Translations under genes and position numbers: made by a program | Shown here: positions 24,191 through 50,441 of the stretch, piece after piece | Layout of the letters: every line of letters begins with the position of its first letter | How positions within the stretch are numbered: the first letter of the stretch is position 1 | The notes under the pieces: model-generated | The model's input: the letters and a program-made list of their open reading frames with translations, nothing else | What the model was told of the DNA's origin: nothing | Database searches by the model: none | Source: Escherichia coli | GTDB lineage: Bacteria > Pseudomonadota > Gammaproteobacteria > Enterobacterales > Enterobacteriaceae | Assembly (NCBI RefSeq): GCF_003790525.1 | Contig: NZ_CP033635.1 | Length of the DNA stretch: 64,000 nt | Direction: 5' to 3' (one strand)

Positions 24191-24220
24191 AAAAGAGCGA
24201 CTTCGGTCGCTCTTTTTTTT
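24191..24220 (+). terminator. rho-independent terminator after gapA
   Basis: Stem AAAAGAGCGAC / GTCGCTCTTTT with TTCG tetraloop followed by a T run. Confidence 0.85.
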
Positions 24221-43421: not shown

Positions 43422-43448
43422 AACCGCGTCACTGACGCGGTTTTTTTA
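43422..43448 (+). terminator. rho-independent terminator after dmlA
   Basis: Stem CCGCGT / ACGCGG followed by TTTTTTT. Confidence 0.7.
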
Positions 43449-47486: not shown

Positions 47487-48614
47487 TTACTGCGGATATT
47501 CCTGCAATAAATTGTGTAATGCTTCCGCCATCAGCTCACCACGCCAGCCGGAAATCAGCTCCGGCAAATTGTTCTGCGGTTTCAGTTTCCAGTGCCAGTT
47601 CAGCAGTTGGTTGATTTGCCGACGCGATGCCAGCAATTCGGCGCTGATCTTGTGCGTTTCGCTCACGTCAGTAATCAGCGACTTAATCGCTTTAAACGCT
47701 TTACGATAACCCGGCATGTCCATCAGGTTAAGCATCGGCTGCGGTAAGGCCTCTTCCGGCAATGTCTGCGCTTTTTCCACCAGCGCCAGCAGCGTTTTAC
47801 CGTGAAAGCGGATTTCGCTACCGGATAAACCCAGGCTGTCCAGTTCGCCTAAACTTCCCGGCATATAACGCGCTACAGACCACAAATGCTCTTCACGCAC
47901 GACAAAGTTCACTGCCAGATCGCGCTCCCGCGCCTTGCGCAGTCGCCAATCGGCTAACAGTTGCAGACAGGCCAGTTGGCGTGTGCGTAACTGCCAGGCA
48001 TTGGTGATATCACGCCAGGCATCTTCCGGCGCAACGACTTCCTGACGACGCATTTGCATCAGGCGGCATTCATCCAGCGCCGCAGGTAGCCAGCCGGAGG
48101 CCTCCGTTTCTACCATAAGCTTGGCGGTGATCGGTAACAAATACCAGACATCCGCCGCTGCGTATTCACACTGACGTTCGGTCAGCGGTCTGGCCAGCCA
48201 GTCGGTGCGCGATTCACTCTTGTCCAGCGTAACGCCGGAATACTCTTCCACCATGGAAGCAAAACCCCATGACATCGGGCGTCCGCAGAAGGCAGCAAGG
48301 ATTTGCGTGTCAATCAGGGGTTGTGGTAATTCGCCAAAGACATTGAGGAACACTTCCAGATCTTCACTGCCCGCATGGAGAAATTTTGTGATGGACGGAT
48401 CGCGCAGGATCGCTTTCAGTGGTGACCAGTCGGAGATCCCGAGAGGATCAATTAGCGCCAGATGCTCACCATCAAAAAGTTGAATTAGACCTAGCTGCGG
48501 GTAATAGGTGCGCGTACGAACAAATTCAGTATCCAGGGCTATCGCCGGAAAGGCACGGACGGCTTCACACAAAGAAGCCAGCGCATCGTCCGTGGTAATC
48601 ATTTGGTAATTCAA
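47487..48614 (-). CDS. rnd: ribonuclease D
   Basis: 375 aa; DEDD exonuclease motif ALDTEF; initiates at UUG (CAA on plus strand at 48612-48614). Confidence 0.9.
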   Translation of the reverse strand: MNYQMITTDDALASLCEAVRAFPAIALDTEFVRTRTYYPQLGLIQLFDGEHLALIDPLGISDWSPLKAILRDPSITKFLHAGSEDLEVFLNVFGELPQPLIDTQILAAFCGRPMSWGFASMVEEYSGVTLDKSESRTDWLARPLTERQCEYAAADVWYLLPITAKLMVETEASGWLPAALDECRLMQMRRQEVVAPEDAWRDITNAWQLRTRQLACLQLLADWRLRKARERDLAVNFVVREEHLWSVARYMPGSLGELDSLGLSGSEIRFHGKTLLALVEKAQTLPEEALPQPMLNLMDMPGYRKAFKAIKSLITDVSETHKISAELLASRRQINQLLNWHWKLKPQNNLPELISGWRGELMAEALHNLLQEYPQ

Positions 48615-48638
48615 ATTGTATTCTCTTTAGTGGGCGTC

Positions 48639-48664
48639 AAAAAAAACGCCGGATTAACCGGCGT
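48639..48664 (-). terminator. fadD terminator hairpin plus U8, also the element upstream of the rnd UUG start
   Basis: Stem ACGCCGG / CCGGCGT with 5-nt loop followed on the minus strand by eight U, 24 nt before the rnd UUG. Confidence 0.8.
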
Positions 48665-48683
48665 CTGACGACTGACTTAACGC

Positions 48684-50369
48684 TCAGGCTTTATTGTCCA
48701 CTTTGCCGCGCGCTTCGTCACGTAATTCTCGTCGCAAAATTTTTCCGACGTTAGATTTCGGTAACTCATCACGAAACTCCACCAGCTTCGGTACTTTGTA
48801 GCCCGTGAGCTGACGGCGGCAAAAAGTCACCAGTGACTCTTCGGTAAGCGATGGATCTTTTTTCACAACGAAGATTTTCACCGCTTCACCACTAGAGCCG
48901 GAAGGTACGCCAACAGCCGCGACTTCCTGTACGCCAGGATGCTGCATGACGACATCTTCAATCTCGTTGGGATAGACGTTAAAACCGGAAACCAGAATCA
49001 TGTCTTTTTTACGATCGACAATGCGCAGGAATCCTTCTTCATCCATCACCGCGATGTCGCCGGTGTGTAACCAGCCATTTTTGATGATTTCATCGGTAGC
49101 ATCCGGACGCTGCCAGTAACCCAGCATCACCTGCGGTCCTTTGACACAAAGCTCACCTGGTTGACCAGGTGGTACTTCATTATCATCATCATCCACCAGT
49201 TTGGCTTCCGTCGACGGCACCGGCAAACCGATGCTACCACTATGATAATCAATATCATACGGGTTAACGCTCACCAGCGGCGCACACTCGGTCAGGCCAT
49301 AACCTTCCAGCAGATACTGTCCAGTCAGTTTCACCCAACGTTCTGCCACCACTTGCTGAACAGGCATCCCTCCGCCTGCGGAAAGATGCAGACTGGAGAA
49401 ATCCAGCTGCTGGAACTCTTTATTGTTCAGCAACGCATTGAACAAGGTGTTAACGCCAGTGATAGCGGTAAACGGATATTTCGCTAACTCTTTTACCAAC
49501 CCTGGAATATCGCGCGGGTTAGTGATAAGCAGGTTCTGCCCCCCCAGTTCGATAAACAGCAGGCAGTTAATGGTCAGTGCAAAAATGTGATACAGCGGCA
49601 GCGCCGTCACCACCAGCTCTTTGCCCGGATGCAACAGCGGACCATAGGTCGCGTTAACCTGTTCCAGGTTCGCCAGCATATTGCGGTGAGTCAGCATCGC
49701 GCCTTTCGCCACACCAGTGGTACCGCCGGTGTATTGCAGGAAAGCTAAATCTTCCGGCACCAGTTCGGGTTTGACGTACTGCATCCGGTAGCCGTTGTGC
49801 AGGGCGCTACGAAATGAAATGGCATCTGGCAGATGGTATTTCGGCACCAGACGCTTGATGTATTTAACAACGAAATTGACTACCGTGCCTTTTGCCGTAG
49901 ATAGCTGATCGCCCATACGGGTCAGAATTACGTGCTGAACGGCGGTTTTATCAACCACTTTTTCCAGAGTGTGGGCAAAGTTAGACACGATAACAATCGC
50001 CGATGCGCCGCTATCGTTAAGCTGATGCTCAAGTTCACGCGGGGTATACAACGGGTTAACGTTTACGACAATCATCCCGGCACGCAAAATGCCAAACAGC
50101 GCCACCGGATATTGCAATAAATTAGGCATCATCAACGCAACGCGATCGCCTTTCTTCAGTCCCAACCCTTGTTGCAAATAAGCGGCAAACGCGCGACTGC
50201 GTTCTTCCAGTTTGCGGAAGGTCATCACCTCCCCCATATTCACAAACGCGGGTTGATCGGCGTAGCGCGCGACCGACTGCTCAAACATATCTACCAGAGA
50301 TTGATAACGGTCAGGGTTGATCTCCGTCGGAACGTCCGCGGGATAACGGTTAAGCCAAACCTTCTTCAA
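48684..50369 (-). CDS. fadD: long-chain-fatty-acid--CoA ligase
   Basis: 561 aa from TTG ([10 protein letters not shown] read as MKKVW) with GAGGTG Shine-Dalgarno; AMP-binding signature [18 protein letters not shown]. Confidence 0.9.
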
Positions 50370-50441
50370 TTCTTCACCTCTAAAATGCGTGTTCGTCGTC
50401 ATCGCAACCCCAAATGATATACATGCCGTTAACATAATATT

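Follow-up and report, generated by a model that had tools for sequence, protein, structure and literature searches.

A short RNA element at the fadD–rnd junction of Escherichia coli very probably works for both of its neighbours: it is the intrinsic terminator of fadD and of the small RNA SroD, and its U-tail, in the transcripts that read through it, acts as a U-rich enhancer for initiation of rnd translation at an AAGAGA/UUG start region. Spelled out as a mechanism, (i) the segment 48666-48639 would act as a Rho-independent terminator of fadD, (ii) the same hairpin and U-run would form the 3′ end of SroD, an sRNA derived from the 3′ end of fadD, (iii) every rnd mRNA, whether its start lies in the last ~40 nt of fadD or farther upstream, would carry hairpin and U-run in its 5′ leader, (iv) the U-run, lying upstream of the weak AAGAGA, would serve as a U-rich translational enhancer and (v) this run, to which S1 (a ribosomal protein) or the 30S subunit probably binds, would be needed for initiation at the inefficient UUG at 48614. 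The story of the fadD terminator and the rnd enhancer is already known, from work published between 1988 and 2021; the points added here are minor, namely frozen fadD sites that overlie a sigma70-like match, a tentative outer helix around the hairpin and a hairpin that generally goes with fadD in distant lineages. The window is the whole 64,000-nucleotide stretch of E. coli DNA that was analysed, and all positions refer to its minus strand. The features on which the argument rests are as follows.

48684..50369, minus strand: fadD coding sequence, 561 codons, TTG start, stop codon TGA at 48686-48684 (K-12 and RefSeq annotation)
48693..48721, minus strand: inferred rnd promoter, with −35 GTGACG at 48721-48716, a 17-nt spacer and −10 GACAAT at 48698-48693
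48640..48725, minus strand: SroD sRNA (Rfam RF00370), 115.2 bits, E 1.5e-24, model positions 1-86 of 86
48635..48670, minus strand: tentative outer helix, CGUC 48670-48667 with GACG 48638-48635, bracketing hairpin and U-run
48644..48666, minus strand: GC-rich terminator hairpin, ACGCCGG 48664-48658 with CCGGCGT 48652-48646, loop TTAAT 48657-48653
48639..48646, minus strand: T8 run, the terminator U-tract and the published U-rich translational enhancer of rnd
48622..48627, minus strand: Shine-Dalgarno-like AAGAGA, 7 nt before the start codon, anti-SD duplex of −2.9 kcal/mol
48612..48614, minus strand: rnd start codon TTG (K-12 annotation, PDB 1YT3, comparative alignment)
48600..48602, minus strand: in-frame ATG, rnd codon 5, the PGAP start in strain SMS-3-5 and probably not the main start
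47487..48614, minus strand: rnd (RNase D) coding sequence of 375 codons and a stop codon, the same length as PDB 1YT3

The junction, its terminator and SroD

The locus is the fadD–rnd junction of E. coli, with a spacer of 69 nt that is equal in K-12 and in the window. Over 501 nt around the site, identity to E. coli SMS-3-5 is 100%; this segment occurs in single copy, with annotated fadD and rnd, in 5425 of 5426 complete E. coli genomes, and 5418 of the 5426 carry the 94-nt junction at an identity of 95% or more (query cover is at least 80% in 5410). This is the same locus as the E. coli K-12 rnd 5′ leader, with its UUG start, GC-rich stem-loop and U8 enhancer: hairpin, U8 and flank are identical when compared with the K-12 sequence given in a Term-seq table, the strain is a different one and there is no difference of substance.

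The hairpin begins 17 nt past the fadD stop codon. Its core stem is a perfect 7 bp, which a scan extends to nine pairs (AGACGCCGG/CCGGCGTTT), six of them GC, enclosing a 5-nt loop and followed by T8. The first T of the run (48646) doubles as the last stem base, and seven unpaired U are left if the A–U closing pair forms. Folded in isolation the hairpin has an energy of −14.4 kcal/mol, and a folding z-score of −2.2 was obtained for the 106-nt region that contains it. Counted over both strands, the 64-kb window holds no more than three sites at which six or more T follow a perfect stem of 7 bp or longer, against a mean of 0.03 sites in 100 dinucleotide shuffles, which argues that the combination of hairpin and T-run is not due to chance. 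From the end of the U-run to the TTG there are exactly 24 nt (48638-48615), and these contain the AAGAGA. A first-pass annotation had already placed the ACGCCGG/CCGGCGT hairpin, the eight U and the TTG at 48614-48612, all of which are exact in the sequence; it also set the hairpin 24 nt from the start codon, a distance that holds when counted from the end of the U-run and not when counted from the hairpin.

A GC-rich stem-loop that directly adjoins a U-run is what is expected of an intrinsic terminator, and published in vivo data agree. Term-seq (Adams et al., 2021, eLife, PMC7815308, supplementary file 1) lists strong 3′ ends at MG1655 positions 1888017, 1888018 and 1888020 on the minus strand, which map to 48640, 48641 and 48643 in the window, that is, to the seventh, sixth and fourth U of the run. 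The first of these ends comes from LB at OD 0.4, the second from M63 glucose and the third from LB at OD 2.0, and all are classified as 'primary' for fadD and for sroD (PMC7815308). Two of them, 1888018 and 1888020, reappear in supplementary file 3 of the same study, listed at distances of 27 and 29 nt before the rnd ORF. Its Rho-termination table contains no entry for fadD or rnd, an indirect indication that termination here does not need Rho, and its main text does not discuss the site (PMC7815308). In vivo 3′ ends that fall inside the U-run support the reading of the element as the Rho-independent terminator of fadD, as the first-pass annotation had proposed, and the check by Term-seq that it had suggested for fadD 3′ ends is thereby answered from published data, with dominant ends at 48640-48643. 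The element resembles canonical Rho-independent terminators in its GC-rich stem of 7-9 bp, its 5-nt loop, its U8 tail and the position of the 3′ ends within the U-run. Unlike them, it sits only 24 nt before the next start codon, and its U-tail is therefore re-used in the downstream initiation region.

The terminator belongs to a third transcript as well. The Rfam model of SroD (RF00370) matches the window over its full length, well above its gathering score of 50 bits, and it matches 12 of 16 related loci. The sRNA shares its 5′ 42 nt with the 3′ end of fadD (the last 13 sense codons and the stop codon) and finishes with the hairpin and U-run; the 3′ hairpin of the RF00370 model is the terminator hairpin itself. 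SroD was first reported by Vogel et al. (2003), as cited in a later paper. The present finding shares with SroD this full-length model match and differs in that it concerns the cis roles of the sRNA's terminator. A further Rfam match in the same search space, to snoR9 (16 bits, E 0.3), was rejected as chance. The earlier proposal that one RNA element does two jobs was right as far as it went, and what it overlooked is this third job, the 3′ end of SroD.

The UUG start of rnd and its U-rich enhancer

The start of rnd has been annotated in two ways, at the TTG (375 aa) and at the in-frame ATG 48602-48600, which would give a protein of 371 aa and turn the TTG into untranslated leader. The shorter form is the choice of the RefSeq PGAP pipeline, in which rnd of SMS-3-5 is 1116 nt long with an ATG start, and the largest E. 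coli protein clusters are likewise of 371 aa (P0001 with 4349 members, P0002 with 1000). Against it stand the curated K-12 annotation (1128 nt in MG1655, which corresponds to the TTG start) and PDB 1YT3, in which RNase D was crystallised as the 375-aa form. Starts farther upstream are excluded by an in-frame TAA (48629-48627) five codons before the TTG.

Comparative data speak for the longer form. Eighty Enterobacteriaceae loci and two Salmonella loci were fetched, yielding 69 distinct sequences for an alignment of the start region, in which the start column is TTG in 65 and GTG in the other four, with no other codon in these Enterobacteriaceae. Immediately downstream the sequence behaves as coding: the third position differs in 20 of the 69 sequences at codon 2, in 27 at codon 3 and in 21 at codon 4, and the first and second positions of these codons are invariant bar one Asn/Thr change. 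Upstream it does not, since positions −1 to −7 are all variable, and the AGAGA at −12 to −8 is essentially invariant. Pairing with the anti-SD sequence is worth −2.9 kcal/mol before the TTG and +0.4 kcal/mol before the ATG, and codon 5 itself is ATT in one Enterobacter genome (L049). Eight distant homologues (42-54% identity) extend the pattern: five have a GTG start at the position aligned with the E. coli TTG, one has TTG and two have ATG, and each of the eight encodes Leu or Phe at codon 5 (CTG, TTG or TTT). For one homologue of the GTG type (L089) the gene caller had picked an upstream ATG. The aligned starts, together with Leu or Phe at codon 5, identify the TTG as the real start. The ATG was therefore rejected as the start of rnd, because it has no SD pairing, because codon periodicity begins at codon 2 and because codon 5 is not universally ATG; that it should nevertheless be the true start is extremely improbable. 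On this comparative evidence rnd has UUG as its first codon and uses no better in-frame start, so that the UUG start put forward in the first-pass annotation is upheld jointly by K-12 annotation, the length of 1YT3, the TTG/GTG column and periodicity. To judge from the aligned sequences, a weak non-AUG start appears to be an old feature of rnd, kept well beyond E. coli. In the supplements of a start-site ribosome profiling study (TetRP), fadD is listed and rnd is absent.

That the U-run promotes initiation at this start is known from the literature. Three later papers cite Zhang & Deutscher (1992, PNAS, pmid 1372983) for a U-rich tract that enhances translation of the UUG-initiated rnd mRNA, and the deletion work is cited as showing that this tract is needed for rnd translation and 30S binding (pmid 1372983). 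These later citations are consistent with one another and bear out the statement, made in the first-pass annotation, that a U-tract is needed for efficient rnd translation. An earlier paper by the same authors carries the words "Evidence for translational regulation" in its title (Zhang & Deutscher, 1989, J Biol Chem, pmid 2681190). The window has the layout of such an rnd-type U-rich enhancer, the U8 ending 11 nt before AAGAGA and 12 nt before AGAGA. The 1989 work is said to have located the rnd start site on the upstream side of the hairpin; changes in the leader reportedly cut RNase D without cutting the mRNA, and the stem-loop itself, not just the U-run, was reportedly required for rnd translation.

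Other systems show how such a tract may work. In synthetic terminator riboswitches, a U8 next to the ribosome-binding site raised expression about 3-fold (100 against 31 Miller units; Wachsmuth et al., 2013, PMC3575828). As in rnd, it is the U8 of a terminator, lying upstream of a ribosome-binding site, that boosts read-through expression; these constructs are artificial, and they provide an independent illustration of the mechanism, not a homologue of the rnd leader. Known S1-dependent enhancers (the manY leader, the fepB leader and those of the rrnB boxA type) likewise have a weak initiation region preceded by a pyrimidine- or A/U-rich tract, and fepB (GUG) shares with rnd a non-AUG start. 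The rnd tract, unlike the manY, fepB and rrnB enhancers, doubles as the U-tail of a terminator, and S1 is its putative partner. A complication comes from the Citrobacter freundii group, in whose read-through RNA the U-run is predicted to base-pair with an A-run farther upstream, which would fit poorly with a permanently single-stranded platform for S1.

Conservation, read-through and rival readings

The consensus fold of 67 distinct leaders contains the terminator hairpin only, and the stem is supported by compensatory changes at three pairs: a GC to AU change in six sequences (Kluyvera group), a CG to UA change in two (Cedecea group) and, at the loop-closing pair, mixed pair types across genera. 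With the tested structure taken as a whole, the paired fraction of cells is 92.9%, compared with 32-59% for slid controls. Conservation of the U8 is not strict: Escherichia, Citrobacter and Salmonella have T8 at this place, and most other genera have TTTTTTAT, or UUUUUUAU as RNA.

On the question of which neighbour the element serves, loci in which the junction has been rearranged and lineages in which the gene order differs point in both directions. The rearranged loci speak for rnd, beside which the element remains when the spacer is enlarged. In Dryocola (L082), fadD is directly followed by a terminator of its own and then by ~130 nt, and a hairpin with a U-run is still found 24 nt from the TTG. 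Two Citrobacter loci (L012 and L019) carry a ~165-nt insertion and a duplicated hairpin, of which the copy on the fadD side is without a U-run and the copy on the rnd side keeps its T8. In E. coli strain E04, an IS200C lies within the T-run and leaves T6 on the fadD side, and the end of the IS contributes its own hairpin and AUUUAUUUUU at the same distance from rnd. Farther away, the hairpin is present in two lineages with fadD upstream (L087 and L094), the second with an unrelated hairpin sequence, U6 and a GTG start. No GC hairpin with a U-run precedes rnd in L088, L090 and L093, where fadD is not the upstream neighbour, nor in L091, where the upstream gene is fadD-like, or L092, where a small ORF lies between fadD and rnd. 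Its lack before rnd in L088, L090, L091, L092 and L093 argues that it is not a general requirement of rnd translation. In these distant lineages the hairpin thus seems mostly to track fadD, not rnd, and our reading is that the element is primarily a terminator on which rnd translation became dependent in the Escherichia lineage.

How rnd is transcribed follows in part from the geometry of the junction. With only 24 nt between the U-run and the TTG there is no room for a promoter between them, and every rnd mRNA should therefore be a product of terminator read-through. A sigma-E array study describes yeaZ-yeaY-fadD-rnd as one unit, with induction of 2.8 for yeaY, 2.2 for fadD and 1.5 for rnd, a fall that is consistent with partial read-through. 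A closer promoter is suggested by the 3′ end of fadD, in which, across 71 distinct sequences, the third positions of codons −15, −14, −12, −11, −10 and −3 (CGA GAA ... CGT GAC GAA ... AAT) are frozen and that of codon −4 (GAC) is nearly so; almost all of the 35 codons upstream of these blocks vary freely in the same 71 sequences. The frozen blocks overlie GTGACG-17-GACAAT, which scores highest among the sigma70-like matches in the 160 nt before the U-run (8/12 in a relaxed scan; a scan at the 9/12 threshold gave nothing near the site). This match is probably the rnd promoter, an SroD seed being the alternative, and transcription is predicted to start near 48685/48684, 70 nt before the TTG. A promoter placed inside the 3′ end of fadD would again mean that rnd transcripts must read through the terminator. 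The supplements of Cappable-seq, Kim et al. (2012), Conway et al. (2014) and Thomason et al. (2015), searched with both MG1655 coordinate versions, did not yield an rnd transcription start.

Sequences beyond the U-run suggest a further structure. The block that follows it, which reads GACGC in E. coli and GGCGC or GGGCGC elsewhere, could form an outer helix with bases immediately before the hairpin. The share of paired cells in this helix is 83%, compared with 24-53% for slid controls, and 10 cells show double changes, against 2.4 +/- 1.3 in shuffles. In single-sequence folds it appears in 47 of the 67 native leaders, in 26 of 67 when the block is reversed and in 18 of 67 when it is complemented. 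These figures come from a helix derived post hoc from the same sequences that were used to test it. It is absent in Salmonella, in part of Citrobacter and in L087, and the E. coli sequence offers another possible 5′ partner at 48683-48676. For these reasons (its post hoc origin, the failing lineages and the ambiguous 5′ partner in E. coli) the outer helix, which could form only in read-through RNA, is tentative and no more than suggestive.

Three other readings of the element have to be weighed against that of a terminator with a re-used U-tail. The simplest would see in the hairpin and U-run the fadD/SroD terminator and nothing else, the closeness of rnd reflecting tight gene packing and the effect of the U-run on rnd the mere absence of inhibitory structure. 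The distribution in distant lineages suits this reading, with the hairpin where fadD is upstream (L087, L094) and none otherwise (L088, L090, L093), as does the degradation of U8 to U6AU in most genera. It is difficult to reconcile with the cited deletion work, in which the U-rich tract was necessary for both rnd translation and 30S binding (pmid 1372983), with Dryocola, where hairpin and U-run are retained beside rnd despite a separate fadD terminator, and with the two Citrobacter loci, in which it is on the rnd side of the insertion that the U8 copy is retained. We therefore hold it to be improbable. A second reading gives priority to SroD, the main selected function being that of an Hfq/ProQ-type 3′ handle of a trans-acting sRNA, to which the roles for fadD and rnd would be secondary. 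Besides the full-length RF00370 match and its occurrence in 12 of 16 loci, it could draw on the frozen synonymous sites, which fall at SroD positions 3-11 (CGUGACGAA) and in the first loop (GACAAU) and might mark a seed region. The same blocks are equally compatible with sigma70 −35 and −10 elements and a 17-nt spacer; the papers found name neither a target nor a phenotype for SroD, one study ruled out a role of SroD in the phenotype it addressed, and in L082 the hairpin is retained beside rnd though the SroD model no longer matches. This priority of the sRNA has little likelihood.

The third reading makes the leader a regulated attenuator, in which read-through, and hence the level of RNase D, would be modulated by a factor or by an alternative RNA structure. 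In its favour, the putative promoter lies ~19 nt upstream of a strong terminator, the helix specific to read-through RNA shows some covariation, and Term-seq lists 3′ ends 27-29 nt upstream of the ORF (PMC7815308, supplementary file 3). Set against this, neither the consensus fold of the 67 leaders nor the Rfam structure contains an antiterminator or any other helix competing with the terminator hairpin (the added helix brackets the hairpin), no condition-dependent data on read-through were found, and the outer helix is missing in Salmonella and L087. Regulated attenuation is accordingly an improbable account of the leader. Weighed together, these points leave the reading of a terminator for fadD and SroD whose U-tail serves as the rnd enhancer as the preferred one.

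RNase D expression and the meaning of the junction

That preferred reading can be extended, tentatively and with a good deal of doubt, into a model in which rnd expression is hard-wired to read-through. The promoter would lie in the last ~40 nt of fadD, with the terminator ~19 nt after the transcription start, and a helix that forms only upon read-through (between the 5′ flank and GACGC/GGCGC) would change the way in which the ribosome meets the U-run. The output of RNase D would then equal read-through frequency multiplied by U-run-dependent initiation at UUG, with read-through a limiting step, and could perhaps be tuned. We regard this extended model as rather unlikely in its entirety.

The practical value of these findings is modest, and they leave the current understanding of the locus unchanged. 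They do bear on annotation, since the automatic NCBI pipeline puts the start of rnd four codons late in most E. coli genomes, an error that comparative data of the kind used here can correct. For the biology of E. coli, the junction shows how one short RNA element can be shared by three transcripts – as terminator of fadD, as 3′ handle of SroD and as translational enhancer of rnd – and the locus illustrates why RNase D stays scarce.

The hairpin and T-run between fadD and rnd

Only two further sites in the window combine a perfect stem of 7 bp or more with a following run of six or more T; both are presumably additional intrinsic terminators.

24193-24220, plus strand: perfect stem (≥7 bp), then T-run (≥6)
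43422-43447, plus strand: perfect stem (≥7 bp), then T-run (≥6)

The fadD-rnd junction is split in two places in at most 8 of 5418 genomes. In E. coli strain E04 (locus L083:2540-3270), the T8 run is interrupted by an IS200C element, with the hairpin and T6 retained on the fadD side and, on the rnd side, a new hairpin plus AUUUAUUUUU supplied by the IS end, again 24 nt from the rnd TTG. Two Citrobacter loci (L012:2267-2500 and L019:2268-2500) carry an insertion of ~165 nt between the genes, bordered by two copies of the 20-nt hairpin (ACGCCGGGTGAATCCGGCGT), with T8 retained only in the copy on the rnd side; this insertion, an apparent remnant of which is seen in L010, looks like a small mobile element with the terminator as its target. 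In Dryocola (L082, 2252-2500), fadD has a separate terminator of its own (AAAGCCGGTACTACCGGCTTTTTAT) and, ~130 nt further on, the hairpin close to rnd persists together with TTTTTTAT. Finally, loci of the Citrobacter freundii group (e.g. L009:2440-2480) have an A-run (AGAAAA) immediately 5' of the hairpin, which can pair with the entire U-run in read-through RNA and would thereby mask the proposed rnd enhancer in these species.

Both ends of fadD

Among 71 distinct Enterobacteriaceae sequences, third positions in the last 15 codons of fadD (48693-48733, minus strand) are fully invariant in CGA GAA, CGT GAC GAA and AAT, while the adjoining codons vary freely. These invariant blocks match a sigma70-like sequence, GTGACG-17-GACAAT, but may just as well be functional elements of SroD, the small RNA that overlaps the fadD 3' end. 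At the other end of the gene, the annotated start is also a TTG (50369-50367, minus strand; region 50367-50402), and a new alternative start 33 nt upstream of it, ATG 50402-50400, appears in a published table of tetracycline ribosome-profiling data.

The rnd leader and start codon

An ACA triplet at 48617-48619 (minus strand) begins 5 nt upstream of the rnd TTG and agrees with 'rnd 5', an entry in a published list of transcripts processed by MazF; MazF cleavage here would give a near-leaderless rnd mRNA. The Term-seq table (PMC7815308) adds a 3' end seen in minimal medium, MG1655 1887883(-), ~108 nt inside rnd.

48506, minus strand: ORF-internal rnd 3' end, Term-seq table (PMC7815308)

In strain SMS-3-5, RefSeq/PGAP starts rnd at ATG 48602 (window 48600-48614, minus strand), giving 371 aa, the length also found in the largest E. 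coli clusters of the protein, while the 375-aa product from TTG is that of K-12, PDB 1YT3 and Salmonella and Citrobacter entries. Comparative data favour TTG over ATG 48602, and most automatic E. coli annotations therefore appear to place the start four codons late. Among distant rnd homologues, a non-AUG start (GTG or TTG) aligns with the E. coli TTG in six of eight lineages (L087, L088, L089, L090, L092 and L094), and this recurrence suggests that weak initiation of RNase D has long been under selection.
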